DNA from: Iphione sp. A-MEVVRFRX5 | Taxonomy: Eukaryota | Direction of reading: 5' to 3' | Length of the DNA stretch: 64,000 bases | NCBI GenBank assembly: GCA_976226885.1 | Contig: OZ320316.1 | Location: 60,512,001 to 60,576,000, forward strand | Shown here: positions 8,061-44,254 of the stretch, piece by piece | How the letters are laid out: each line of letters begins with the position of its first letter | How positions within the stretch are numbered: position 1 is the stretch's first letter | The notes under the pieces: model-generated | The model's database searches: none | What the model saw: only the letters and a program-made list of their open reading frames with translations | What the model was told of the DNA's origin: nothing | Program-made: the position numbers and the translations under genes

Positions 8061-8336
8061 AGATCACGACCAGACAGATTTACTGTAGTCCCAACCCAGA
8101 GTGGTCCACAACTCGTAAAAAGGCCGTGGGTGTATAGGATTCTATCCCCTATGCACAAAAAGATCCCAGAAACCTATTCGAAATAAGAGTAGGGGGCAAC
8201 CCCGGGTATTCTGGTCTCTCAATTCTCAACAATAGATGGTAGTATGCTACCCCAGGAGGATATGGAAGAGCTCTGTCATGTGATGGAGAATATCTAGTTC
8301 CTGGTTAAAGATACAATGAAATGAAATGAAATGAAA
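8061..8336 (+). mobile_element. 5'-truncated copy of tRNA-derived SINE (Nin-like core, (ATGAA)n tail)
   Basis: Body nearly identical to reverse complement of copies at 15080-15430 and 43683-44030; ends in ATGAA repeats; tRNA head missing. Confidence 0.85.
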
Positions 8337-15079: not shown

Positions 15080-15430
15080 TTCATTTCATTTCATTGTATC
15101 TTTTACCAGGGACTATATATTCACCTATCATATGACAGGGTTCTTCCATATCCTCTTTGTGTAGCATACTACCATGTATTATTGAAAATTGAGAGACCAG
15201 AATACCCGGGGTTGTCCCTTAGTCTTATTTCAAAAAGCTTTCTGGGATTTTTGTTTACATAGGGGACAGAATCCTATACACCCGCAGCTTTTTTTACAAG
15301 TTGTGGACCACTCTGGATTGGAACTACAGTAAATCTGTCTGTTCTTGATCAAGAGTCCCAGGTCCAGAATTGAACCTGTGACCTCTCAGTCAGTGGACCA
15401 GTGCTCTACCACTGAGCTAACACCCCACCC
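15080..15430 (-). mobile_element. Full-length tRNA-derived SINE with Nin-like central domain
   Basis: Head with A-box TAGCTCAGTGG and B-box-like GGTTCAATTCT, a body shared with the other copies, (ATGAA)n tail; core of the family (GCACAAAAAGATCCCAG...TTCGAAATAAGAGTAGGGGGCAACCCCGGGTATTCTGG in the 8061 copy) resembles the Nin/MESC SINE domain from memory. Confidence 0.85.
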
Positions 15431-15994
15431 AATGTAACTTATGCAAATTTGCCCCCCCCCCCTCAAAAAAAAACCAAGTGAAATTCATGCAAATTTGTCC
15501 GAAGAAATGGCAGAATACTGTGCAACTCACGTGAATTCAGCAAAAATGGGAAATTCAAGTGAATTCAGCCAAAAGACAGCAAAACTCACCGTTTTTATTA
15601 TACATATGGTCTTAAGTAGCCACATATCTTTTACAATGGTTGTATATTTGTAAATGCCGGTGTGGGAGATGGCTTTTTGATTCAGTACCAGAACTCGGCC
15701 AACTGATGCTTCTGTTGGCACAAAAAACTTATATAGCTGTACTGAGTTACCCCCTAACGTATATAAGTATGCACTATCCAGTGCGGAACCTATCACACAG
15801 GCAACATCATATAGCTTGTGGCAGTAATAGGGAGTCTATTTCTTTCTCCTCATGAATCATTTCTGGATGATTTTCATTATACATATGGAATTTAGTAGAC
15901 ACCCATCTTATACAATGGTTGTAAATTTACATGACAATCATTTCAGGCAGTCGCCGACTGGGCTGCTTCTCTAAGTAGAGAAGCCGCCTTCTAA

Positions 15995-23117: not shown

Positions 23118-23595
23118 CCAGGAGGAGTATTCGAGAGTGGTCGAGGGCATCAACGGCGACTTCTTTGATGGTCTCTCACCCTGGAGGAGTATCCCGGGAG
23201 TGGTCGAGGGCATCAACGGCGACCTCTCTGAAGTTCCTCACACCTTGGAGGGGTTGACCGGCAGTGGTCGAGGGCGTCAACGGCGACCTCTCTGAAGTTC
23301 CTCGCACCTTGGAGGGGTTGGCCGGCAGTGGTCGGGGGCATCAACGGCGACCTCTCTGAAGTTCCTCACACCTTGGAGGGGTTGGCCGGCAGTGGTCGAG
23401 GGCGTCAATGGCAACTTCTTTGATGGTCTCTCATCCTGGAGGAGTATCCCGGAAGTGGTCGAGGGCGTCAACAGCAAAGTCTCTGAAGTTCCTCGCACCT
23501 TGGAGGGGTTGGCCGGCAGTGGTCGAGGGTGTGAACGGCGACGTCTCTGAAGTTCCTCACACCATGGAGGGGTTGGCCGGCAGTGGTCGAGGGCG
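23118..23595. repeat. 63/64-bp tandem array (~7.5 units, two subtypes) in the Tigger 5' subterminal region
   Basis: GACCTCTCTGAAG recurs at 23221, 23285, 23349 (64-bp period); variant units begin GACTTCTTTGATGG (23158, ~23413). Confidence 0.9.
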
Positions 23596-23702
23596 GTCCC
23601 CTCCCTCTATCATACATAAGGAGGTCCAGACAGCACCAGAAATCACTCTTCTCCTGGATTCCCGTGAAGACACACCTCCAGACCACTCCAGACCACTCCA
23701 AG

Positions 23703-25238
23703 ATGCCCAGAAACGAACTGTCCCTTGGTGACAAGGTGAAGCTCCTCAAGGTCTCCACTGGAAGAAGCCAGAGGAGCCTTGCTGAAGAGTTCAAGATAGG
23801 GAAGACCCAAGTCCAATGCATCCTCAAGAGAAAGAGGGAAATCATGGAGCAGTATGAGAAATCACCAGACCCCTCAGTCAAGAGGCACCGCTACTCCACT
23901 GACCTCTCTGACCTGGATGAAGCCTGCTACAAGTGGTTCTGCAGGATGAGGTCACTGAACACCCCCATCTCAGGGCCTGCCATCCAGAAGAAGGTCCTGA
24001 CCCTGAGCAAGGAACTCAACCTGCCAGACTTCAAGGCCTCAGTGGGGTGGCTGCAACGCTTCAAGATCAGGCACTCCATTGGGGCCTTGAAGGTGTGTGG
24101 GGAGAGTGGTGGTGTTTCTGAGGTGGCAGTGGAGGATTGGCTCCAGCAACTCCCTGAGAAGCTCAGGGGATATGCCCCCAGGGACATCTACAATATGGAT
24201 GAGACCGGGCTCTTCCATAGGATAATGCCAGACAAGACCCTTGCCCAGAAAGGATCATCAGCCAGTGGATTCAAGAAATCCAAAGAAAGGATCACTCTCT
24301 CTCTGTGTTGCAACATGGAGGGAGAGTTTGAAAAGACCCTGGTGATAGGGAAGGCCCAGAAGCCCCGGTGCTCCAGATATGTGGACATGTCTGCACTCCC
24401 TGTCACTTGGAAGGCAAACTCCAGGGCCTGGATGACATCCTACATATTCCAGGAGTGGGTGCACAAATTCAACCAGAAGATGAAAAGGCAAGGGAGAAAG
24501 GTTCTCCTCCTCCTGGACAATGCCCCCTCACATCCACATGATATGAGGCTCAGCAATGTGGAGATGGTGTTCCTCCCTCCACATGCTACCTCAAAGCTCC
24601 AGCCACTGGATCAGGGCATCATCCAGAACCTGAAATCACACTACAAGAGCAAGCTCCTCAGTTACTTCATCCAGAAGGCTGACTCCACTGAGGGGCCCAT
24701 AGACCTTCAGTCCCTGATGAAGTCTGTGGATCTTCACCGGGTGGTCTACTGGGTGAGGGACTCACTCCAGCAGGTGAAACCAGACACAGTCAGGAAATGC
24801 TTCCTCAAAGCTGGAGTGAAGATTCCTGATGAGCCCAGTCCAGTGGAGGAGGAGGAGGAGGAGGAGGAAGAAGATGAAGAAGCAGAGTTGGTGAGGAAAG
24901 CACAGAGAGTCCTCCCTGTGGTAGATCCATGCCTACCAGATGATTACTGTGGCATGGATGCAGGTCTCCCAGCCCACAATCAGGATGTGGACTCAGACCT
25001 GCTGCCAAAGAAGGATCATGAGGAAGAGGAAGAAGAAGAAGAAGAAGACACATCACCACCTCCAATCACCCATGCAAAGGCCATGGACATGATGGAGCAG
25101 CTGAGACATCATTTTCTCCATCATGGTGCCAACACCCTCCTGGAGGCCCTATTGACCACCATGAACTCTTTTGACAAGCATGTACAACAATCCAGGAAGA
25201 AACAAAGCACTATTGACTCTTTTTTTAAACCACAGTGA
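23703..25238 (+). CDS. pogo/Tigger transposase (511 aa; HTH/CENP-B-like N-terminus, DD30D catalytic domain)
   Basis: MPRNELSLGDKVKLL...(HTH), 'WFCRMRSLNTPISGPAIQKK...FKASVGWLQRFKIRH' (CENP-B-type HTH), catalytic NMDETGL / LLDNAPSH / QPLDQGII with 30 residues between the last two Asp, C-terminal PIP-box-like QSTIDSFF. Confidence 0.95.
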   Translation: MPRNELSLGDKVKLLKVSTGRSQRSLAEEFKIGKTQVQCILKRKREIMEQYEKSPDPSVKRHRYSTDLSDLDEACYKWFCRMRSLNTPISGPAIQKKVLTLSKELNLPDFKASVGWLQRFKIRHSIGALKVCGESGGVSEVAVEDWLQQLPEKLRGYAPRDIYNMDETGLFHRIMPDKTLAQKGSSASGFKKSKERITLSLCCNMEGEFEKTLVIGKAQKPRCSRYVDMSALPVTWKANSRAWMTSYIFQEWVHKFNQKMKRQGRKVLLLLDNAPSHPHDMRLSNVEMVFLPPHATSKLQPLDQGIIQNLKSHYKSKLLSYFIQKADSTEGPIDLQSLMKSVDLHRVVYWVRDSLQQVKPDTVRKCFLKAGVKIPDEPSPVEEEEEEEEEDEEAELVRKAQRVLPVVDPCLPDDYCGMDAGLPAHNQDVDSDLLPKKDHEEEEEEEEEDTSPPPITHAKAMDMMEQLRHHFLHHGANTLLEALLTTMNSFDKHVQQSRKKQSTIDSFFKPQ

Positions 25239-25648: not shown

Positions 25649-25763
25649 GGGAGGGTCCATTAATCATCATGGTGGCCGAGGAGAGACTCGGAATCATTAT
25701 TGGAAGCATCATTGGAGGCATGTTGCTCTTTGTTGCAGTCATCATACTTTATGTATTGTGCCG
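25649..25763 (+). CDS. Transmembrane-coding exon of a type I membrane protein (host gene)
   Basis: Acceptor TCTTCTTTCAG, donor CG|GTAAGT; phase1/phase2; encodes GEGPLIIMVAEERLGIIIGSIIGGMLLFVAVIILYVLCR (~23 hydrophobic residues). Confidence 0.75.
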
Positions 25764-25926
25764 GTAAGTTTACAGAAATCATACATGCACGTGTGTTACA
25801 TCACGGAGCAGGGGGAGACAGGCTTTTAAAGGGCATTGCCCGTGTGTGGGGGCGATGGTGGTGATTTGCTGGTCCCGCGGTCTGCAACCAGAACCCAAGA
25901 AGCAAATCATCTGAGATCATACATAT

Positions 25927-26353
25927 TATAGTTTCTACTTGGGTTCAATAAAGAACTGACAACTCTGAGTCCTGATTCAAAACTGTCTTTATTCAGGTTC
26001 CCTCTCATATTTATATCTTTTCTCCAATCAAGGCACTAGCCAATCATCTGTCAGTATCAGAGTAAGAGAATACATTGTTACCTTCTTTAACAGTCCTTTC
26101 AACTAACCTACCAATCAGGAGAGGGCAAAGTATCACTTTTGGGCTGTGGGACCACAGCCGAGTGCTGCCGATCCAATCACAAGAGAGCTTTGAGACTCCA
26201 GGGTAGTTTGTTTTAAATCCAGGGGTGGCTGTGGTACCACAGTGACCCTTAGTGCATGTGCACCGAGTCCAGTACTCCTGCACTTACAGGGCGTGCGCCC
26301 GTACCTCCACCTGTGGCACCACAGCTCGAGGCCGGCTCCTGCATACCACTACA
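25927..26353 (-). repeat. 3' LTR (427 bp)
   Basis: Matches 35863-36338 except ~6 transitions and a 49-bp deletion; one terminus mutated (TA instead of TG on the + strand); three CTGTGGnnCCACAG palindromes, CCAAT boxes, minus-strand TATAAA and AATAAA. Confidence 0.97.
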
Positions 26354-26366
26354 CTCTCCCCTCTTT
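26354..26366 (-). promoter_or_regulatory. Polypurine tract (PPT)
   Basis: Minus strand AAAGAGGGGAGAG immediately 5' of the TGTAG start of the 3' LTR. Confidence 0.9.
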
Positions 26367-26603
26367 AAATTACACCCACCTCTGAGAGATGGGGCGAAGT
26401 ATTACACCCTAGAAGATCAATCTAGGAACAGCAATTCTAACTCAATCTCCCGACACTATAGCCACTAGGTAGCTTCCTTAATTTTAGCACCAATGAAATT
26501 TCTCTCGCCGTCACTACTTAACACCTGCTAAAGTTTTACAATGCGTCTAATCCCAAAAGTATCTGAGTGTCCCTGAGCATGCAGTCTTATAAGCCTGAAA
26601 TAC

Positions 26604-26785
26604 GGCTTACGGCCGTGGTAGTTCAGTAACACAGTCATATCAAATGAACTAAGGCTTACGGCCGTGATAGTTCAGTGCAACAGTCATATCAGATGTGGAG
26701 GTATGTAGTCCTCTGAATGTGAAGTAAGGCTTACGGCTGTGGCAGTTCAGTAAAACAGTCATATCAAGTATGGGGGCTTAAGGCC
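26604..26785. repeat. Three and a half spaced copies of a 39-nt unit in the Gypsy 3' untranslated region
   Basis: GGCTTACGGC(C/T)GTG(G/A)(T/C)AGTTCAGT...ACAGTCATATCA at 26604, 26653, 26728; partial at 26775. Confidence 0.85.
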
Positions 26786-27053
26786 GCAAAAGTCCAACCA
26801 ACCAATCACATAAAAACACTATCATACTTTGAATTCAACAACGGAGAAGCCCGTGTTGGGCGAAACTTGACCTCTACGTAAACTCTGAATCTGGCCTCAC
26901 TCTCTTGGAGGAAAGTTTGATCACCGGGATGATATCAGTCTCACGTGGAGTTTGAGGCCCGAGCAACGACACCAACTCAACAAAAAAAACATTCTTTACC
27001 CGCTCGGGCCCCTACTCACCACCCTGTGGAGGTCGGCTGTTCTACTCCTCCGT

Positions 27054-28502
27054 TCACATCACGTCAGTGTTGGTGCGACGCTGCTGAGAGGGGCGGGCCT
27101 CCAGGAGGTCCCACACAGTGGGGTCCTCCGCTCGTTGTTGGACCCGTGCCGCCTGTGCCTCCCGCTCCCAGGTGTCGAAGGCCTCGCGCCTCGAGGCCGC
27201 CGTCGCCGCGTAGGCCGGATGCGGGTCTTCGAGGAGGTTGGTCGCTGCTTCGATCGATCGGTTGTGCCAGCGGGTGACACGTTCGCAGTCGCCCCACTCG
27301 AGCCGGTCAGGGATCCGCATCCCTTCCAGCGCGAGGACCGACCGCCTGACCAGGGGGTCGATGAGGTGTTGCGGCGATGCCTCTGACTCCGCCAGGGCCA
27401 GAACCCACGCCAAGGAGGAACTGGCGATGAAGCGCGAGGTTGGGCTCATCTCCATCCAGCGGGGAGGGGGCCATTCCAGCCGCAGGGGAAGGCGTACCAT
27501 AGTGGGAACCATGACGGCTCGCCGTACCGCCGGGTAGGGTGGCACTCGGCCGTCCAGAATCTCCCGGACTAGACGGGACAGTGGGCCGAGCATGGGCGTG
27601 GTGAGTTCCCGTTCTGCCAGTCGTTGAAGGTGTCCTGGCGGGAGGGCTGCCTCCCGGGGCCGATCGCTTGATGGACCTCGAGAGGGTCCAGAGGCCTCCC
27701 AAGCCGTCAGGGTGTCGAGGAGGGCGGCCAGACTCCAGTCAGGGGTCAGGAGGGATGGCCCCCCCCTCGCAGTAGACTGGCGACTGACGTGGGCGTCCCT
27801 GGAGTGGTGCTGCTGCTTCATCGTCCACCGCTGCCGGCTCTGGTTGACCTCCCCGGGCCTCCGGTGACGGGGGATACACCCCGGCCCCACGCATAGGGCA
27901 CTTGTGGTGCATCCCGGAGATACCCCCGCCCAGCAGGAGCTGGAGGCATGGGCGGAGTGCGGTCGCTCCCTACGCTGCCCTCCCCAGAGTCGGAGGGGGA
28001 AGCGGGACGTCCAACGGCGGCAGCGGCCGGTGAGGTGCGCCAGCGGGCTCGGCCAGAAGCATGGGACGGCTGGGACTCCGGCGGGGGTGTGGACTCCATT
28101 GCCGATGAAGAAGATGGTCCGAGAGGCCCGGGTGGAGGCCTGGTTGCCGGTGTCCGAGGTGCACCGTGCCCAGGCAGGAGAGAAGACGGTTGCCGCCCCC
28201 AGACGACGCGCCGCTCGGGGAGGCTCGGCCGAGGCTCCAGGATCTCGTCTACTTCCGCCGGACCCATGAAGGCGCCGAGAGTGGCGGGTGCCCGGCTCGC
28301 CTAGGACGCTGCGACAGAAGAGGCAGTCCATCTGTCGGTGTCGACGGCCCCCATGCTGCTCCTTCTGATGACACTCCAAGGACTCCCCCGCCCAATACAC
28401 CCGGTGGGGTGTGCAGAGCTCACACCAAGCTGTACCAGGGGGCAGGGGTTCTCCCTCCTCCACCTGGGGTGCCGGGGGACGTGCCACTTTCTGCCGGGGC
28501 AT
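27054..28502 (-). CDS. Gypsy accessory ORF: two atypical C2H2 zinc fingers, Pro/Ser-rich linker, helical C-terminal domain (probably frameshifted in this copy)
   Basis: ATG at 28502 right after a pyrimidine tract + CAG acceptor; CELC-x14-H-x4-H and CLFC-x10-H-x4-H; alternative frame 28267-27818 looks like the true linker; C-terminal 'LEWPPPRWMEMSPTSRFIASSSLAWVLALAE...' block; no signal peptide or TM. Confidence 0.65.
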   Translation of the reverse strand: MPRQKVARPPAPQVEEGEPLPPGTAWCELCTPHRVYWAGESLECHQKEQHGGRRHRQMDCLFCRSVLGEPGTRHSRRLHGSGGSRRDPGASAEPPRAARRLGAATVFSPAWARCTSDTGNQASTRASRTIFFIGNGVHTPAGVPAVPCFWPSPLAHLTGRCRRWTSRFPLRLWGGQRRERPHSAHASSSCWAGVSPGCTTSALCVGPGCIPRHRRPGEVNQSRQRWTMKQQHHSRDAHVSRQSTARGGPSLLTPDWSLAALLDTLTAWEASGPSRGPSSDRPREAALPPGHLQRLAERELTTPMLGPLSRLVREILDGRVPPYPAVRRAVMVPTMVRLPLRLEWPPPRWMEMSPTSRFIASSSLAWVLALAESEASPQHLIDPLVRRSVLALEGMRIPDRLEWGDCERVTRWHNRSIEAATNLLEDPHPAYAATAASRREAFDTWEREAQAARVQQRAEDPTVWDLLEARPSQQRRTNTDVM

Positions 28503-29039
28503 GCTGCTTGCCACAGAGAAAGACGGCCAGCCAGGGTGGTTGTGGAACCACAGGCTTGTTGACAGTACAGGTTAGGTCAAGACGTGGGGCCACAGACTAC
28601 AACACACAGAGATGAACAGTCAGCGGCAGACAATCACTGTGGTACCACGGACAACAAGCTGACTGCACTTGGGGTGGTCACTCAGCCGCCCTTACCTGTC
28701 GTCGGAGATGGAGGTGCGAGGTGCGGCGAGGCCACAGCGCGGTGATGGCGACTGCCGCTCCTCGCCCAGTCACCCGATCCTTCTGCAGCGTCTGCCGGAA
28801 ACCGTGGTCTGTGGTTCCACGCTCACGATCAGCTTCCTGCTTCTCAACGCCCCGTCGGATGTGTCCACGCATAAAGACTTATTTTTGGCACTGTCCCCCG
28901 GCGTCCCCGCTGTTCTTCTCAGCCTCTTCTCTCCCTCACGTGGCCAGCTGTGGTGCCATGGGCCGCCATTGATCACGTCTCGCGAGATCACGGGTTCTCT
29001 CGCGCCCCGTGAGATCCCGCATCTCGCGTCCGTATCTCA

Positions 29040-29445
29040 TCTGTGGGCCCACAGCGAAACTGCTTACTCTACGACTGCTGAAGATTCATTCTTTTTGTAC
29101 TATAGGGGACTGGTAGGGATAGGACAAAAACTGTGCTACACCACTCTATTTCCCTTCCTTCGGCTGTGGCACCACAGGCACTTTCGCTGCGTTCTCCCTC
29201 TAGAGGGCGACACCTCCTCCCCGCCTGTGGTTCCACAGCCCATTCACCTGATACGTTGTATCGGCTATTTCCCCTGATTCCACCAATCACTCGTTACGTT
29301 GGATTTCTGTGGCACCACAGTACGAGTGGTTACCCTCCCAGCCAATCGCTCGAAAGCCAATGATATCTGTGGCACCACATACATGATCTTCGCTGCCCGC
29401 CGTAGCCAATCATCTTGGCCCACTGCGCCCCCCCCAATATAAATG
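29040..29445. promoter_or_regulatory. Putative bidirectional internal promoter of the Gypsy accessory region
   Basis: CTGTGGnnCCACA(G/T) palindromes at 29041, 29164, 29225, 29307, 29367; CCAAT at 29283, 29342, 29357, 29406, 29434; TATAAA at 29438-29443; flanked by divergently oriented spliced ORFs. Confidence 0.6.
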
Positions 29446-29677
29446 AGATGGGCTACGGCCAGCCTGCTTCATCTGGACTCTTGCTGCACCCCACCAGGCT
29501 TCTCTATCCTTCCAGCTACCCCTTCCAGCTACCCCAGCTCAGGTACCCGTCTTATGTAGGAATGGCAACTGTTTAACATCTTTGAACTAGCTGAACCAGA
29601 GACAAATCATAGTTTTTTTTTTGTTTTGTTTTGTTTTTTTTTAACGGTTTTCTCCCTTTTTCAGCCTAAACCCAGCC

Positions 29678-30547
29678 ATGACCAATCAAGGGACCGCGTT
29701 TGGGCACCTTCCTGCTGCGGTTCTTCGGCCTTATCGCCTGTGAGTGTTTGGATAACTCTTCCTCTACTTCCACTCGTTCTAAGTGTTATCCAACATCGCC
29801 CCTTCCTGAAGTTTAGTGTCAGCCAGATCCATCTTCATTTTTCCTGCCTATTTTCTCTTCCATAGGCTCCGCTATCGACCCACCCTGCCCGGGTCAACCC
29901 CCTCCGGCGTGAACATTCACACAGAAGGGCCGGTGGTACGAGTTTTCGGCACCCATGAGATCATAGATGCCCCCTTCATCTTGCCTGTTCCGGGCCGTCT
30001 GATCTTCCTTGGGCCGCTTCACGTGATTGACCTGGTGGTACGCCCTGTCGCCCCTCCTGGCTCGGCGCGACCCCCGCCAACGATGCCCGCCCCATCAGAC
30101 TGGGCCGCTTGCTACACCACCCCGTTGCTTCCACCGGCCTCTCCCTCCTCCAGTGCTTCCGGGTATGGCACCGACAGCCCTTCATCCCTTACCAGCAGTC
30201 GTCTGGACCCCTGGGGGTCCCACCAGGACCTTTCCGCGATGGGCGCCTCACCACCCCCGGCAGACGGATCGGGTCGCTCCTCTCCAAGCCCACGGCCGTC
30301 ACCCACCCCGTCGGGAGAAGACTCTGTACCGCCTCCGTCTCCGGCCGTCACGAGGTCAGAATGCACTACCCCCGAGACAGGCGATGACATCTCCTGCAGC
30401 TCCTCACACCTGGGGACTTCCCCTCCGGGAGGCCATGTGCCCTTCGCGGCGATTTCGACTCCCGCCCTGGCAGCCTGGTATCGTCAGTTTCGTTGGGGCG
30501 ACGCTCCCTTCTGCCCTATCCTGGTATCTTCCTCCGATGAGGAATAG
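29678..30547 (+). CDS. Antisense spliced accessory gene of the Gypsy element (CDS join 29678-29739, 29866-30547; ~247 aa, Pro/Ser-rich)
   Basis: Non-coding exon 1 ~29470-29542 (CAG|GTAC); acceptor TTTTCTCCCTTTTTCAG|29665; gccATGa at 29678; donor CT|GTGAGT 29739; acceptor TTTTCTCTTCCATAG|29866 in matching phase 2; stop 30547; AATAAA 30614-30619. Confidence 0.75.
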
Positions 30548-30613
30548 GACCTTAATCAGTAACTACACTCCCCATGCTAAGTACTCTGTAGCTGCGTGGC
30601 TGACATACCTTGA

Positions 30614-30619
30614 AATAAA
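30614..30619 (+). terminator. Polyadenylation signal of the antisense accessory gene
   Basis: AATAAA ~67 nt after the TAG at 30547. Confidence 0.6.
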
Positions 30620-31024
30620 TTTCAACTAACTAATTTGTCCCCCGTGTTCGTTCTATGTTCTGTTCGCTCTCAGACTTAATTATAAACACCCTTCCCGTCG
30701 TCCCGCCGCAGCGACCAGAGGACATAACCCGACCAGGTTCTAATTCCTTCGCCCTGGTCCGAGTTGGCTCCACCCCTGACAGTGTGCCGGCTTGCCCAGA
30801 GGACAAAGCCTGGCCAGACCTCCGTCTCCTTCTGGCCCAGGCCGGCTCCACTGTCAGTCCCACCTCCGTGGTCTGTCGACCTCTCAGCTACCACCAGCCT
30901 ACACTGCAAGCGGCCGTAGTGCTGCCCTCCCTAACGGGAGCTTCCTTCGCACACTATGGTTCGCCCTCCGACAACATCTCCGGAGCTGCCTAGGTCCCCC
31001 CCCGGAGGACGTGCCCCCACTCCT

Positions 31025-31355
31025 CCCCCTAGAGCTTTTGGGTACCGCACCCGGGGATGTCCAGCCTCCCCCTCTGGAACTTTCGGGTCCCGCACCCGAG
31101 GATGTCCAGCCTCCCCCCCTGGAGCTTTTGGGTCCCACACCCGAGGATGTCCAGCCTCCTCCCTCTGGAGCTTTTGGGTCCCACACCCGAGGATGTCCAG
31201 CCTCCCCCCTCTGGAGCTTTTGGGTCCCACACCCGAGGATGTCCAGCCTCCCCCTCTGGAGCTTTTGGGTCCCGCACCCGAGGATGTCCAGCCTCCCCCT
31301 CTGGAGCTATTGGGTCCCGCACCCGGGGATGTCCAGCCTCCCCTCCCTGGAGCTC
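31025..31355. repeat. ~45-bp minisatellite (~7 copies) in the tail of pol
   Basis: GGAGCTTTTGGGTCCC(A/G)CACCCGAGGATGTCCAGCCTCCCC units; give 15-aa repeats in several frames. Confidence 0.95.
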
Positions 31356-31365
31356 TCTGCTCTCC

Positions 31366-34300
31366 CTAGTCCGACCTCCACTGGAAGATTTTTATCCTTT
31401 TGTTACGAGCTCCCTTCCTTATTCGCGCGCCGCCGCCATGACTTGATCCAACGAGGTATCTACCCTCGATACAGTCGTAGGCGATTCCGATGCACCACCT
31501 TGGGGCGAGCCGGGCTGCCCGTTGGACCACCAATCGCTCTGGGTCCAGTACCTTAGTAACGAGCCATGGACCCGTCCAGGGCAAGTATACTTTAGGGCTC
31601 TTCCCTCTGGGTGGTTGAGCTTCGTGTAACCACGCCACGTTCCCTTCCTGTAGGGGTTCCCCTTTTGCCCGGCGATCGTATCCTCTAGCCTGCATCCGTG
31701 CAGCCTTTAACAAGTGTTCCCGGACCGTCTGGTAAGCCCTCTTCAGCTGACGTTGAAGGCGCTGCACCCACTCTGGCATAGTCACCTGTTCCTTCCCCTC
31801 CCACTCACTAAGAGGGAGGCCATCCATCGCATGCGCTGGCAGGACCACCTCCCGACCGAACATCAGGAAGTTGGGTGTGAAGCCAGTACTGGCTTGGGGG
31901 GAAGCTCGGTAGGCCATCATAAGCAGTGGGAGTGCTTCATCCCAGTCGTCGCCGGTATCGTAGCAGTGGGCTTTAATCATTTTCCCTAGCGTGCGGAAGC
32001 TCCTTTCGATAAATCCATCCCCCTGGGGGTGTCTAGGGGTCGTCTTGGTTCGCTGGATTTGCAGGAACTCACACAGAGCAGAAACAACTTCACTGCAGAA
32101 GTTGGTTCCTCTGTCGCTGTGGAGCTCCATGAAACATCCATAACGAGAGACCACCTCCTCCACTAGTACTTGTGCTATCCGGGTTGCCTTCTGATCAGGC
32201 AGTGGGAAGGCCTCTAGCCATTTAGTAAAGTGGTCCCCCACCATTAAGATATAACAATTGCCCCGCTTGGTATGGGGGAACGGACCGGCCACGTCCATGG
32301 ACCATCTCTCCATTGGCTCCCCGGACATATAAGTGCGCAGCGCCGTCTGTGGACGGAAGGGATTTACTGTGAGGAGAGCACAGTGACATTTCGCACAGAA
32401 GGTTTGTATAACTTGTTGCATCCCAGGCCAGTAATACGCCAAGGACACCAGGAAAGTGGTGCGGTCTACCCCTAAGTGGCTACCCATTCGGCCTTGGTGG
32501 ATTTCCTCGATAGCCTTGACTCGTCGCTGTGCAGGGAGTACCAGCTGCAGGCGGGTTCTTGGGGCTTCGAGCTCATGCCACTGCCGGTATAGCAGCCCCT
32601 CTTGTACCACCAAACGGTCCCACTGCTGCCATAGTTTCTTGGCCGCCCTCGACAAGGGGGAAATATCCTCCCACTCTGGCCTACCAGATGTATCCTCCTT
32701 CAGCATCAGGATAGGTCCAATATCTGGGTCGTCCAGCTGCGCACCCCGAAGGGCCCGATCTGTCGCCCCCTGAGTGCGGCCTCGGGTGACGACTCGTACC
32801 TCCACCCCATGCTCCTGCTTACACTGTTTACAAGGCATTCGGGATAGAGCATCTGCGTTACCGTGCAGGCGCCCTGGTGGGTGCTGAAGGTGGAGGTGAT
32901 ATTGACCGATTCTCTCCAGCCATCGAGCTAACTGCCCCTCAGGGTCCCGGATACGGCTCAACCAGCTAACCGCCCCATTGTCCGTCTGCACCGTGATCTC
33001 CTGCCCGTATATAAAAAAATGAAAATGTTTCAAAGCAGCTACCACCACCAGCAACTCCCTCCGCATCACACAATACCTCCGTTCCGGTGGCGTGAGACTG
33101 CGGCTAAAGTACGCGAGGACTACTTCCTGGCCTTCCTGCTCTTGGGAAAGCACAGCTCCTAGCCCCACATTGCTGGCATCTGTGTCCAAATAAAAACGTC
33201 CCTTAGGCATCGGGTAGCCCAGCACGGGGCTGGCCTGTAATGCCCGTTTCAGAGATTCGAAGGCCTCCTCTTCTTCGGGGCCCCAATAAAACCGGGTCCG
33301 GGGGCTAGTCAGCCGGTGTAGGGGTGCTGCTAGATCGGCGAAATGAGCCACCAGACGGCGGTAGTAGGAGCAAAGTCCGAGAAAGGCTCTTACGTTGGTA
33401 GTGGAGGTCAGCCTTGGCCATTCCTGGATACACTGCACCTTCCCGGGATCCGCTGAAATTCCCCGATAGGACACCCGATGCCCCAGGAAAGGAACCTCCT
33501 CAAGGAACAAACGGCATTTAGCCGGTTTCAATTTTAAGCCAGCAGCCTCAATTCGAGAGAGCACCTGATCCAACCGGGCTAGCGTCTCCCCAAAATCCCG
33601 CCCAAATACCAATACGTCGTCCAGATAGACTAGGCATTGCTCCCAGGTCAGTCCCCTGAGCACCGTGTCCATTAAACACTCAAACGTAGCAGGAGCGTTG
33701 ACCAACCCAAACGGCATCACTGTAAACTCATACAACCCAGAGGATGTGGTGAAGGCCGTCTTTTCCTGGTCCCGCGGATCCATCTTAACCTGCCAATAGC
33801 CCGATGCTAAGTCTAGCGAACAAAAGTACCGAGCTCCCGCCAGTGCGCTTAACGAATCATCCACTCGGGGTAGGGGATACGCGTCAACCTTCGTCTGTTG
33901 GTTTAGTCTCCGGTAATCGACACAGAAACGAGTAGTTCCATCCTTTTTGCGTACCATGACTACGGGACTTGCCCAGGGGCTCTGGCTCACGACAATGACC
34001 CCGGCCTCTGCCATTTCCCTTACTAGTTGCTGCTCTTCCTGTCTTCTTGACAGGGGCAGGCGCCGAGGTTGCTGTTTAATGGGACCTGATTCCCCCATGC
34101 AAATACGATGTTGCACCACGTCCGTACAACCCAAGTCACCTTTGTGTTGTGCAAAGGCCCCCCTGTGCCGTTCTAGCACCACCCGCAGCTCTCCTTGTTC
34201 CCCTTCAGTGAGATGAACTGTCTTAGTGGCCATCAACTCATCTATCAAGGTCCCTGTCCCCACCTTTGTGGTAGCCACTTTCAGGGGGTGGTTCTGGAGG

Positions 34301-34986
34301 CAGTCAGTAACCTCCTCCCTCTGCGCTGGCGAGCCAAGGGCCAGAGACGTCCCCTGTTGGATCAACAGTTCCCTCTCCCCAGTGTTCCACACGGGCAGCA
34401 CCTGGCTTACAACGCAACGCACTCCTACCACCCCTTGTAATAACTGATCCTCCTCTAAGCCCTCTACCAAGAATGGACCCTCTCCACTGGGAGACACTGG
34501 GATCCCCACCCCTTCCCCAGGGGGAACCGTAATATCGGAGGCTGCCCTCAGTACCTTAACCCCCCTGGTCTGTTCCTTCCCCCTAGGGGTCCCTCCAAAC
34601 AAAACCTCACCCTGTGCCAAGTCAATGACAATGCCATGCTGGGTCAAGAAATCTGCCCCCAATATCCCATCCCCTTCTATCTCTGCTAACAGGAAGTGGT
34701 GTTTGAATTCCTTTCCAGCAATCCCTACCTGCACCTCCTCTCTCCCTACCGTTGGCAGGATATGGCCCCCTACCCCCATAACCTTTACAGCAGCCCTCTT
34801 AACAACTGGGCCAGGGACCACACAGGGATTCATAATGGAAACTTCAGCACCCGTATCAATAAGCAGTAGGAGTGTCTTCTCACCACAGCTTACCTTGAGA
34901 TGTGGTCCCTGGCCGTATTCCATTATCACCTCCCGGTGGACAAATGCAGTCGGTGTCCCCTGGCCTACTGAGCCGACTGCTGTGTG
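31366..34986 (-). CDS. pol: Gypsy pol polyprotein (protease, RT, RNase H, integrase); C-terminus disrupted
   Basis: LIDTGAEVS (AP), YLDD (RT), DASNVGLGAVL...NADALSR (RH), H-H-C-C region, MDVAGPF / LHSDRGTNF / GFIERSFRTL (IN DDE), WTGPW (GPY/F). A 1-nt shift near 31520 restores 'RPKVVHRNRLRLYRG', followed by an in-frame TAG at 31460-31462. Frame is -1 to gag. Confidence 0.95.
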   Translation of the reverse strand, partial: HTAVGSVGQGTPTAFVHREVIMEYGQGPHLKVSCGEKTLLLLIDTGAEVSIMNPCVVPGPVVKRAAVKVMGVGGHILPTVGREEVQVGIAGKEFKHHFLLAEIEGDGILGADFLTQHGIVIDLAQGEVLFGGTPRGKEQTRGVKVLRAASDITVPPGEGVGIPVSPSGEGPFLVEGLEEDQLLQGVVGVRCVVSQVLPVWNTGERELLIQQGTSLALGSPAQREEVTDCLQNHPLKVATTKVGTGTLIDELMATKTVHLTEGEQGELRVVLERHRGAFAQHKGDLGCTDVVQHRICMGESGPIKQQPRRLPLSRRQEEQQLVREMAEAGVIVVSQSPWASPVVMVRKKDGTTRFCVDYRRLNQQTKVDAYPLPRVDDSLSALAGARYFCSLDLASGYWQVKMDPRDQEKTAFTTSSGLYEFTVMPFGLVNAPATFECLMDTVLRGLTWEQCLVYLDDVLVFGRDFGETLARLDQVLSRIEAAGLKLKPAKCRLFLEEVPFLGHRVSYRGISADPGKVQCIQEWPRLTSTTNVRAFLGLCSYYRRLVAHFADLAAPLHRLTSPRTRFYWGPEEEEAFESLKRALQASPVLGYPMPKGRFYLDTDASNVGLGAVLSQEQEGQEVVLAYFSRSLTPPERRYCVMRRELLVVVAALKHFHFFIYGQEITVQTDNGAVSWLSRIRDPEGQLARWLERIGQYHLHLQHPPGRLHGNADALSRMPCKQCKQEHGVEVRVVTRGRTQGATDRALRGAQLDDPDIGPILMLKEDTSGRPEWEDISPLSRAAKKLWQQWDRLVVQEGLLYRQWHELEAPRTRLQLVLPAQRRVKAIEEIHQGRMGSHLGVDRTTFLVSLAYYWPGMQQVIQTFCAKCHCALLTVNPFRPQTALRTYMSGEPMERWSMDVAGPFPHTKRGNCYILMVGDHFTKWLEAFPLPDQKATRIAQVLVEEVVSRYGCFMELHSDRGTNFCSEVVSALCEFLQIQRTKTTPRHPQGDGFIERSFRTLGKMIKAHCYDTGDDWDEALPLLMMAYRASPQASTGFTPNFLMFGREVVLPAHAMDGLPLSEWEGKEQVTMPEWVQRLQRQLKRAYQTVREHLLKAARMQARGYDRRAKGEPLQEGNVAWLHEAQPPRGKSPKVYLPWTGPWLVTKVLDPERLVVQRAARLAPRWCIGIAYDCIEGRYLVGSSHGGGARIRKGARNKRIKIFQWRSD

Positions 34987-34992
34987 TTTTCC
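34946..34992 (-). promoter_or_regulatory. Putative -1 programmed ribosomal frameshift signal (gag-pol)
   Basis: G GAA AAC in gag frame (34992-34986), 5-nt spacer, then perfect 8-bp stem GCAGTCGG/CCGACTGC; pol frame is open from just upstream of this site and is -1 to gag. Confidence 0.7.
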
Positions 34993-35831
34993 GACGGTTT
35001 AGGCCCTGCAGTGTTCGATGCTTGCTGTGGGGCTTTCGGGCAATCTCTCTTCCAGTGACCCGGTTGCTTGCAGATGAAACACAAATTGTCCCTGGGCCGT
35101 GACCTCTGAGGTCGCATTTCCTCCCGTAGTTTGGCAAACTCCTGCATTAGGACTTCCACCATGTCCTTGGGTGCTGGGCTGTTAGCATCCTTGTTGCCAC
35201 TTGCTTGTATGGCGTTCACCCTCCTAGCCGGGAACCGTTCTTTGATCTCCACTACCTGTAGTGCAGCCTCCATGGTCTTGCATTGTTCTTCTAGACATTT
35301 CAAATGCAGGTCATCAGGGAGCGCCCGTTGAAAGGCCGACACTGCCGCTAACTCTCGCGTCTCCGCACTCACATCGGGGTACGCGGTGCGTACAAGTCGT
35401 CGGACTTTATCAGCAAACCCCTTGGCATCCTCCCCTTTCTGTCTGCGGATCGTGGACAGGCCTTGCATAGCCGTCACTGGATTACGTCGACGTCCAAACC
35501 GCTTTTCCAAGGCGGCTACCCTGGGCTCAAAGTCAGCCTTGTCCTCCGACGGAAGGTCTCCAAAGTACATTCGGGCGGTGCCAGTCAACGACAGAGCCAG
35601 TGCTGAAGCTCTTGTGTTCAGACTCCACTTGCATGCATCTGCCCATTCGACAAACTGGACAATCCAACTGTCCCAGTCGACTACGTTGCCATCGAATCGT
35701 TCAGGTTTCATGGCATTGGTGCGCAGTGGCTCCTCTGGGGCTAGCACGTAAGGCTCAGCTTCTTCTTCATCGTCCGCATCCGGTACGCGTAGCTGTACCT
35801 CGTCGTCAACTGCCACAAACTTGGTAGCCAT
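34965..35831 (-). CDS. gag: Gypsy gag (288 aa) with CCHC zinc knuckle
   Basis: 'KPERFDG...WDSWIVQFVEWADACKW...LALSLTGTA' capsid-like region and CFICKQPGHWKRDC knuckle; ATG 13 nt after PBS. Confidence 0.95.
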   Translation of the reverse strand: MATKFVAVDDEVQLRVPDADDEEEAEPYVLAPEEPLRTNAMKPERFDGNVVDWDSWIVQFVEWADACKWSLNTRASALALSLTGTARMYFGDLPSEDKADFEPRVAALEKRFGRRRNPVTAMQGLSTIRRQKGEDAKGFADKVRRLVRTAYPDVSAETRELAAVSAFQRALPDDLHLKCLEEQCKTMEAALQVVEIKERFPARRVNAIQASGNKDANSPAPKDMVEVLMQEFAKLREEMRPQRSRPRDNLCFICKQPGHWKRDCPKAPQQASNTAGPKPSENTQQSAQ

Positions 35832-35843
35832 GATGTACAGTGG

Positions 35844-35861
35844 ATCCCACTTCTGACACCA
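35844..35861 (-). promoter_or_regulatory. Primer binding site, tRNA-Leu type
   Basis: Minus strand TGGTGTCAGAAGTGGGAT 1 nt from the 5' LTR end; this PBS sequence is the common tRNA-Leu-complementary type. Confidence 0.9.
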
Positions 35862-35862
35862 A

Positions 35863-36338
35863 TGTAGTTTCTACTTGGGTTCAATAAAGAACTGACAACT
35901 CTGAGTCCTGATTCAAAACTGTCTTTATTCAGGTTCCCTCTCATATTTATATCTTTTCTCCAATCAAGGCACTAGCCAATCATCTGTCAGTATCAGAGTA
36001 AGAGAATACATTGTTACCTTCTTTAACAGTCCTTTCAACTAACCTACCAATCAGGAGAGGGCAAAGTATCACTTTTGGGCTGTGGGACCACAGCCAAGTG
36101 CTGCCGATCCAATCACAAGAGAGCTTTGAGACTCCAGGGTAGTTTGTTTTAAATCCAGGGGTGGCTGTGGTACCACAGCGACCCTTAGTGCATGTGTACC
36201 GAGTCCAGTACTCCTGCACTTACTTCGTATAGCCAGTGCACCCCGACTGTGGCACCACACACTTCTGCGCACAGGGCGTGTGCCTGTACCTCCACCTGTG
36301 GCACCACAGCTCGAGGCCGGCTCCTGCATACCACTACA
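35863..36338 (-). repeat. 5' LTR (476 bp)
   Basis: TG...CA ends; four CTGTGGnnCCACA palindromes; minus-strand TATAAA 35946-35951 and AATAAA 35924-35929. Confidence 0.97.
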
Positions 36339-43682: not shown

Positions 43683-44030
43683 TTTCATTTCATTTCATTG
43701 TATCTTTTACCAGGAATATATTCACCTATCATATGATAGGGATCTTCCATATCCTCCTGGGGTAGCATACTACCATCTATTATTGAGAATTGAGAGACCA
43801 GAATACCCGGGGTTGCCCCCTACTCTTATTTCGAATAGGTTTCTGGGGTCTTTTTGTGCATAGGGGATAGAATCCTATACACCCACGGCCTTTTTATGAG
43901 TTGTGGACCACTCTGGGTTGGGGCTACATTAAATTTGTCTGGTCGTAATCAAGAGTCCCAGGCCTGGAATTGAACCTGCGACCTCTCAGTCAGTGGACCA
44001 GTGCTCTACCACTGAGCTAACTCCCCACCC
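43683..44030 (-). mobile_element. Full-length tRNA-derived SINE (same family as 15080-15430)
   Basis: A-box TAGCTCAGTGG, B-box GGTTCAATTCC, shared body, (ATGAA)n tail. Confidence 0.88.
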
Positions 44031-44254
44031 CTTGTCTTGTTATAAAGGTGGCATATACTTCTTATATGTACACAATATGTTTAGTGCATGGCAGCCATCT
44101 TTAATTCTGTTTGTCCTCATTTCAGTGTGTCATATATCACATACAGCAACTCGGTGCTAAGTTCTTAAGTTGTGCCACCTCCTCTTCATGGTTGAGTGGT
44201 CCCTGATAGTCATAGGTAAGGTGGGTTAAGTGATAGACAACAAGTAACACCCAC

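Follow-up and report, generated by a model that had tools for sequence, protein, structure and literature searches.

The element and its surroundings

The window, by which we mean the whole 64,000-nt stretch of DNA analyzed here, contains a Ty3/Gypsy LTR retrotransposon on the minus strand (25927-36338) that carries two additional genes, arranged head to head, besides gag and pol. Its assignment is based on a pair of LTRs, a primer-binding site, a polypurine tract, a target duplication (ATAT on both flanks), the order of the pol domains, and a CCHC gag. From its 5' end, the element comprises the 5' LTR (35863-36338, minus strand; TG...CA, with four palindromes, four CCAAT boxes, TATAAA, and AATAAA), the adjoining primer-binding site (35843-35862), gag with a CCHC zinc knuckle (34965-35831, minus strand), and pol with protease, reverse transcriptase, RNase H, and integrase in Ty3/Gypsy order (31366-34998, minus strand), both identified with Pfam. 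A tandem repeat of a 45-bp unit (31020-31354; 7.4 copies here, with the copy number differing among copies of the element) separates the antisense gene from the end of pol. The other end is formed by the polypurine tract (26354-26369) and the 3' LTR (25927-26353, minus strand), which has three palindromes and a 49-nt gap relative to the 5' LTR. Alignment of the two LTRs yielded 422 matches, seven mismatches, and this 49-nt gap, and the left LTR end of the window copy reads TA, not TG. No env-like frame was seen between pol and the LTR of the window element. The nearest Pol proteins among the 120 matches listed were at most 63% identical and name no clade. The genome as a whole yielded 41 Wnt matches, which marks it as that of an animal.

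Among close copies of the element, private C>T/G>A changes were found at 51 of 206 CpG sites vs. 57 of 854 other C/G sites, a 3.7-fold excess, from which we conclude that the host likely methylates these elements.

The flanking DNA contains other repeats. A Tigger/pogo-type transposase frame (DDE_1, HTH_Tnp_Tc5) is located on the plus strand at 23535-25238, preceded by a 64-bp tandem repeat at 23136-23595. A short interspersed repeat occurs in three copies that are 86-95% alike and present in both orientations (8062-8284, 15115-15435, and 43716-44035). Finally, a possible host exon encoding a transmembrane segment is found on the plus strand at 25649-25765; its GTAAGT donor lies 160 nt ahead of the element. 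Should this exon be real, the acceptors and AATAAA of the antisense gene, which point in the same direction as the host gene, could trap its transcript.

Anatomy of the antisense gene

The gene on the plus strand is preceded by four CCAAT boxes (29283, 29342, 29357, and 29406) and a TATA box (TATAAA, 29438-29443). Exon 1 (29465-29542), predicted to be non-coding and with a start estimated from the TATA box, ends at base 29542 in CAG/GT, where the slash marks the splice site. Intron 1 (29543-29664, 122 nt) combines a weak donor, GTACCC, with a long T tract and an acceptor AG at 29663-29664. Exon 2 (29665-29739) consists of a 13-nt leader and, from the ATG at 29678 (GCCATG), 62 coding nucleotides, its last base being 29739 in the donor CT/GTGAGT. 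Intron 2 (29740-29865, 126 nt, phase 2) ends in CATAG/, and exon 3 starts at 29866. The coding part of exon 3 (29866-30547) terminates in a TAG stop at 30545-30547 and is followed by a polyadenylation signal (AATAAA, 30614-30619) with a U/GU-rich tract downstream. By these signals, the gene appears complete, its transcription, start site, and splicing being predicted. An in-frame stop directly after the donors was discarded as a signal, as it is a trivial outcome of phase 2 combined with GTRAG.

The first-pass annotation of this DNA had placed the TATA box, introns, ATG, stop, and AATAAA at these positions, and a check of the sequence bore all of them out. The product of ~247 aa that it proposed agrees with coding parts of 62 + 682 nt, i.e., 247 codons plus stop. 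It was also correct in stating that the six-frame track misses the real start: the stop-to-stop frame spans 29810-30547 and has no ATG before residue 74 of the last exon, and the start is missed because this first ATG of the unspliced frame falls past the conserved domain. The central proposal, an antisense, intron-containing gene within the Ty3/Gypsy element, is supported by the anatomy described above, by selection, and by the family copies. That gene call stands; the annotation missed its context, in particular ORF3, the palindrome common to LTRs and intergenic DNA, the conserved tail, and the occurrence in several families.

Conservation and selection among close copies

A DNA search returned 19 matches at 17 places, and 15 copies, the window included, were aligned (69-100% identical) with the exclusion of a 33-base hit, copy L017, and duplicate pieces. 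The annotation had named conservation of splice dinucleotides and frame as a check of the gene call. The dinucleotides are conserved: donor 1 is GT in 15/15 copies, donor 2 is GTRAGT in 15/15 (GTGAGT in 13 and GTAAGT in two, so that changes stay canonical), and acceptor 2 is YAG in 15/15 (TAG in eight and CAG in seven). The AG of acceptor 1 was present in 14/15 copies by column, the AG of the 15th copy being shifted by one column. The ATG, stop, and AATAAA were conserved in all 15 copies and TATAAA in 14. By comparison, 95 of 160 columns in intron interiors were variable, and intron 1 harbored 18 distinct indels, four of them multiples of three. As to the frame, exon 2 has 62 coding nt and no indels or stops in 15/15 copies and an unchanged length in L017, a 16th, more distant copy. 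The last exon is open in nine of the 15 copies and broken in six; the five frame-breaking indels in exon 3 are each private to one copy.

Selection on the last exon was estimated by comparison with four copies, yielding dN/dS values of 0.22, 0.46, 0.27, and 0.23 (bootstrap upper bounds 0.33-0.78), next to 0.11-0.19 for pol and 0.09-0.10 for gag. The last 39 codons reached 0.03-0.24, and the other two forward frames of the exon yielded 0.94-1.68. A reverse-strand gene as the source of this codon signal was rejected, since the sole reverse frame sharing third positions contains 5-7 stops in the window copy. The antisense gene is under purifying selection, and we are highly confident that it is real.

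Intron loss was detected in none of the 15 close copies, and an acceptor precedes the last exon in 20/20 distant copies and in 4/4 elements picked by a promoter motif (see below). This absence of loss fits the earlier proposal that antisense orientation lets introns survive retrotransposition. The explanation itself is plausible rather than observed: introns would persist because the genomic RNA is the opposite strand, on which they would not be recognized. Retroviral genomic RNAs retain sense introns as well. In one copy (L015 / L031), ~370 bp of inverted pol sequence is inserted into antisense intron 1.

Spread across Gypsy families

A search with the conserved 65-residue domain gave 150 scored hits among 878 candidates. 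Seventeen belonged to the family of the window element, and the remaining ones were 33-42% identical. Twenty distant hits (L080-L099), picked to span the types, were fetched. In each of them, a YAG acceptor precedes a GxPGP motif by 13 codons, with the intron phase of the window gene in 19. A homologous exon that carries the ATG, is ~30 codons long, and ends in phase 2 was detected in 19/20. AATAAA follows the stop in 17/17 of the matches listed for these 20 copies, and 19/20 have their own gag or pol on the opposite strand. The separate non-coding first exon is absent from the distant families. A stronger second donor (AG/GTRAGT) is located 83-164 nt inside the last intron in 18/20 copies and may serve as an alternative 5' splice site or in recursive splicing.

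Overall, the antisense gene was found in at least eight Gypsy families of one animal genome. On an integrase tree, 19 carrier rows representing six families formed one clade (99/99) with respect to six database outgroups; seven copies whose integrase piece was not long enough, and one further outgroup, were omitted from this tree. Gag matches at ≥94% all fell within elements bearing the antisense gene (13/13), and no antisense gene was seen at three weaker gag matches, which were truncated or interrupted.

Some carriers have unusual structures. Copies L088, L095, L097, and L022 have lost much of pol and kept both accessory genes; they were found via the antisense gene and hence are a biased sample, with some LTR pairs >99% alike. 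L082/L102 represent two tandem copies with a common LTR, forming a repeat of at least 4.8 kb at 99.9%.

ORF3, the partner gene

ORF3 (27054-28502, minus strand) is oriented in sense to gag-pol and head to head with the antisense gene. The window copy lacks ~160 bases near 28287 that are present in other copies, and its frame is broken there. The frames in two copies encode 556-561 aa, and the frame is present in 20/20 distant copies. The head-to-head order of the two genes recurs in all of the at least eight families. The N-terminus of the protein is basic; two C2H2-like fingers, a disordered segment, and a helical C-terminal domain follow, with two C-x2-C...H-x4-H fingers detected in 16 of 18 elements scanned. 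The N-terminal region of the structural model mostly has a pLDDT of 70-94. Atlas neighbors of ORF3 were C2H2 clusters, and Foldseek rows were mostly C2H2 proteins, with a best E of 0.54, which is below threshold, as is the best Pfam match (E 0.0036). No relative of residues 20-190 was found among 713 candidates, and comparison with viral structures yielded nothing at E 0.001. For a part of ORF3 compared with one close copy, dN/dS was 0.77 (0.48-1.28).

A sense donor (CAG/GTAAGG, 28694-28695, minus strand) is located 193 nt upstream of the ORF3 ATG; among 12 close copies that allowed its placement, 11 retain it. We rejected a leader intron on the sense strand as a shared feature of ORF3, as none was seen across distant families.

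A palindrome shared by the LTRs and the intergenic region

The region between the two genes (28503-29437) is likely a two-way internal promoter. It contains nine TGTGGNNCCACA palindromes, at 28541, 28583, 28638, 28810, 29042, 29165, 29226, 29308, and 29368. With one mismatch allowed, 18 such sites occur in the window: seven in the LTRs, nine in the intergenic region, none in gag-pol, and two outside the element. The LTR and the antisense promoter share a common order of palindromes, CCAAT boxes, and TATA. The idea that the internal promoter is a copy of the LTR was not supported, since the similarity between LTR and intergenic DNA is only motif-sized.

The association was assessed in the 12 elements with both an intergenic region and an LTR defined, by choosing the best of 1024 such 12-bp palindromes from intergenic DNA alone. 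The top intergenic palindrome recurred 2-11 times in the LTR in 12/12 elements, against means of 0.01-0.11 and maxima of 1-2 after shuffling; in pol it was present 0-1 times. Its half-site varies by lineage (TGTGG, CGTGT, TGTGA, CGGGG/TGGGG (YGGGG), and CGTGG), with the LTR and intergenic versions changing together; TGTGG is common to three families. Genome-wide, the paired TGTGG motif was found 1033 times vs. two for the control. In a blind test, LTR elements were picked by the motif alone, and 4/4 had both genes in the same layout and the same phase of the last intron. These elements added two further families, and the palindrome therefore marks lineages rather than single families. Within 400 nt of the stop, AATAAA turned up in only two of the four, and the ATG exon pattern likewise matched in two of the four.

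The antisense protein and its tail

The product of the last exon comprises a beta-rich domain of ~60 aa, a Ser/Pro/Thr-rich middle, and a conserved tail, with 11-19 SP/TP sites in total. Among 2257 candidates with lengths of 124-396 aa, none was a relative at E 0.01, an 18-row profile compared with 1.84 billion representatives found none at E 0.001, and sequence searches of Pfam and PDB were blank. The best Atlas score was 0.77, a lead at most. The structural model of the domain has a pLDDT of 52, approaching 60 only in a hairpin (43-58), and leaves the first coding exon outside. A fold search with this model returned small beta sandwiches throughout, with a best Z of 4.4. Because the model is weak and Z is 4.4 at best, we claim no fold. 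A resemblance to the nucleoplasmin core domain, an eight-stranded jelly-roll, was considered; a match to nucleoplasmin was sought in the Pfam and PDB sequence searches and obtained in neither, and the values from the model (pLDDT 52, Z 4.4) apply here too.

The tail ends in PILVSSSDEE in the window, a sequence resembling a SUMO-interacting motif (SIM). The pattern P-[IV]-x-[VI]-S-[DS], usually followed by acidic residues, was present in 17/17 aligned rows, with a shuffle rate of 1.6% for a pattern that was written after the sequences were seen. The rows represent 15 of the 20 distant copies plus two close ones and only six families; three rows with shifted tails and two near-duplicates were omitted. 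The motif also occurs in the two further families contributed by the motif-picked elements. The core contains at least three V/I/L residues in the window family and four others (ILV, VVI, IVV, IVL, and ILI) and only two in three families (PIEVSD). According to PMC12751080, a SIM is a loose motif defined as a hydrophobic core plus acidic or CK2-phosphorylated residues. On sequence, the tail appears to fit this definition fully in five families and loosely in three. Alternatively, it could be a strand of a small folded domain. VIDLT-type motifs were detected in six of 15 ORF3 rows, and ORF3 of the window family has no SIM-like motif. A full-length intronless SUMO gene was not found in the genome, where the top hits repeat every 228 bases and are polyubiquitin-like.

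A proposed regulatory cassette and its alternatives

We lean toward ORF3 as the protein that reads the palindrome. A fuller reading, in which the two genes and their sites form a regulatory cassette where ORF3 binds the palindrome and the antisense protein binds SUMO and blunts silencing, is quite possible and, in our estimation, close to evenly balanced. Under this reading, the intergenic DNA would act as a two-way promoter producing a spliced, polyadenylated antisense mRNA and an ORF3 mRNA. An ORF3 dimer would read the 5+2+5 palindrome and raise both internal and LTR transcription, a loop that would be feed-forward, as with foamy-virus Tas. In the most speculative step, the SIM-like tail, probably phosphorylated by CK2, would act on SUMO-dependent repressors at the element by competing with them or diverting them. 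As the host likely methylates the copies, an anti-silencing helper would pay. On a broader scale, we consider it conceivable, with some doubt, that an env-less animal Gypsy clade evolved a module like those of complex retroviruses, composed of a finger activator and a SUMO-binding antisense anti-silencer; that the activator co-evolves with a lineage-specific palindrome is part of this proposal, and we hold it with the same reserve. If true, an animal retrotransposon would possess an anti-silencing system with sequence specificity.

The palindrome might instead be read by a host factor, RUNX-like or other, with the two extra proteins doing separate jobs. The antisense protein would then serve in particle assembly, nuclear entry, or integration targeting, or act against a restriction factor. 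The TGTGG half-site resembles a RUNX site and is common to three families, and its reader may therefore be a host factor; by eye, the finger residues do not clearly track the motif. Roles in nuclear entry have been proposed for plant antisense ORFs (PMC7264820). Against a host factor, the half-site takes at least five forms with the LTR and the internal promoter changing together, which would be hard for one factor to follow, and the element encodes a finger protein directly beside the sites. We regard this explanation as rather unlikely.

The same cassette could also work with the antisense protein as a brake that recruits SUMO-linked repressors or ties up ORF3, and the antisense RNA, complementary to the genomic RNA in its 3' part, may add damping. 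Precedents exist: SIM-bearing proteins such as Daxx are repressors (PMC12434695), and foamy-virus Bet suppresses the internal promoter activated by Tas (PMC13220597). The CpG decay suggests that the elements already face host silencing and thus weakly favors counter-silencing, and we consider a brake unlikely.

It is very improbable that the antisense RNA is the main functional product, its frame being kept for RNA stability or as a by-product. Non-coding antisense RNAs are described for Drosophila micropia and TART in PMC7264820, and the weak donor 1 and the second intronic donor of the distant families would allow non-productive isoforms. However, a dN/dS of 0.03-0.24 in the last 39 codons and the retention of protein motifs and intron phase at 33-42% identity speak for a protein. 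Chance signals or a decaying captured host fragment, functionless for the element, would agree with the lack of a protein-database relative and with the six broken copies out of 15, but are hardly tenable, being largely refuted by selection, the conserved intron phase, and the occurrence in at least eight families.

Comparison with known systems

The antisense accessory gene HBZ of HTLV-1 is spliced, encodes a bZIP protein, and has its promoter in the 3' LTR. The gene described here likewise is an antisense accessory gene of a retroelement with introns, the splicing being predicted; in contrast to HBZ, its predicted promoter is internal and its protein is unrelated. An antisense LTR promoter of HTLV-1 is mentioned in PMC7264820.

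The same source describes antisense ORFs between pol and the 3' LTR (aORF-3R) in maize Grande (gene23), rice RIRE2, Silene Retand, and PvRetro13, and states that it is unknown what such extra antisense genes do in LTR retrotransposons (PMC7264820). Our gene is likewise antisense, located between pol and the 3' LTR, and conserved in most family copies, with an upstream promoter of its own that is predicted here, and Retand shares a tandem repeat in the corresponding region (PMC7264820). Unlike aORF-3R as described there, it belongs to an animal, has two introns (the review PMC7264820 does not use the word "intron"), and is accompanied by a head-to-head sense finger gene and a lineage-specific LTR palindrome. 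A search for kinship with plant or fungal antisense proteins yielded no hit in libraries that may not contain those proteins. Outside plants, an extra antisense gene in a Gypsy element is also known from brtn of Boty (BcGypsy1) in Botrytis cinerea and Sclerotinia (Zhao et al. 2011, as cited in PMC7264820 and PMC8365987), a fungal element, whereas the present host is an animal. Antisense extra ORFs between pol and the LTR are thus already known from plant and fungal Gypsy elements.

In foamy viruses, an internal promoter in the 3' part drives Tas and Bet (PMC13220597). The systems have in common two accessory genes, sites in both the LTR and the (here predicted) internal promoter, and splicing, which is also predicted here. 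They differ in that foamy viruses are env-bearing retroviruses in which both products are sense and derive from one pre-mRNA; here the genes are divergent and on opposite strands. With its Gypsy pol order, its divergent genes, and no env-like frame seen, the window element is no foamy virus.

Countering of silencing by a transposon is best worked out for plant VANC: in Arabidopsis VANDAL, motif binding and demethylation by VANC have been demonstrated (PMC5735166). As with VANC, an element protein here coexists with short motifs concentrated in non-coding parts, family-specific in VANDAL (PMC5735166) and specific to a lineage rather than a single family here. VANC motifs often lie in tandem repeats, which here applies to the LTRs of other families. 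VANDAL, by contrast, is a plant DNA transposon whose motifs are non-palindromic and in one orientation; we describe an LTR retrotransposon with a palindrome, with roles proposed from sequence and no Pfam match to VANC for either protein. By analogy, the cassette may work like VANC; it does not belong to that group. In their logic, foamy-virus Tas/Bet and VANC come nearest to this cassette.

Among animal LTR elements, additional ORFs are also known from bdelloid rotifers, where ORF3 is of env, DEDDy, GDSL, coiled-coil, or transmembrane type (PMC5408684). The present genes are unlike these types, and the words intron, opposite, and zinc are absent from the available text of PMC5408684. Our literature searches brought up no animal Gypsy case with this layout; subscription papers, repeat-database entries, or supplements may hold annotated members. 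The two-gene module is apparently undescribed.

In the eight or more families, each finger protein comes naturally paired with a 12-bp site, and whether each protein reads its own site becomes testable by swaps. The ten-residue tail allows SUMO binding to be tested directly. Neither gene is picked up by standard annotation, given the spliced start, the antisense orientation, and the lack of a database relative, and cassettes of this kind may therefore go unnoticed in the genomes of other animals. Host genes close to insertions could also be turned on if the transposon brings a sequence-specific activator with it.

A second Gypsy lineage

The layout may reach a second, far commoner Gypsy lineage, distant from the first (L130/L131, G000:C2:64300800-64309820, and L144-L173), in which the same arrangement was observed. 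Compared to the window element, its pol is 52% and its gag 39% identical. It has an ORF3 relative at E 2e-20 and an antisense frame of ~306 aa; a comparison of this frame's product with the window antisense protein did not reveal kinship (probability 1.5%). The antisense signals of this lineage included TATAAA in 29/30 copies, the acceptor in 30/30, and a GTRAGT donor in 20/30 by a strict pattern, and AATAAA within 300 nt was found in 0/30. The lineage is young and abundant, with 150/150 scored hits at 97-100%.
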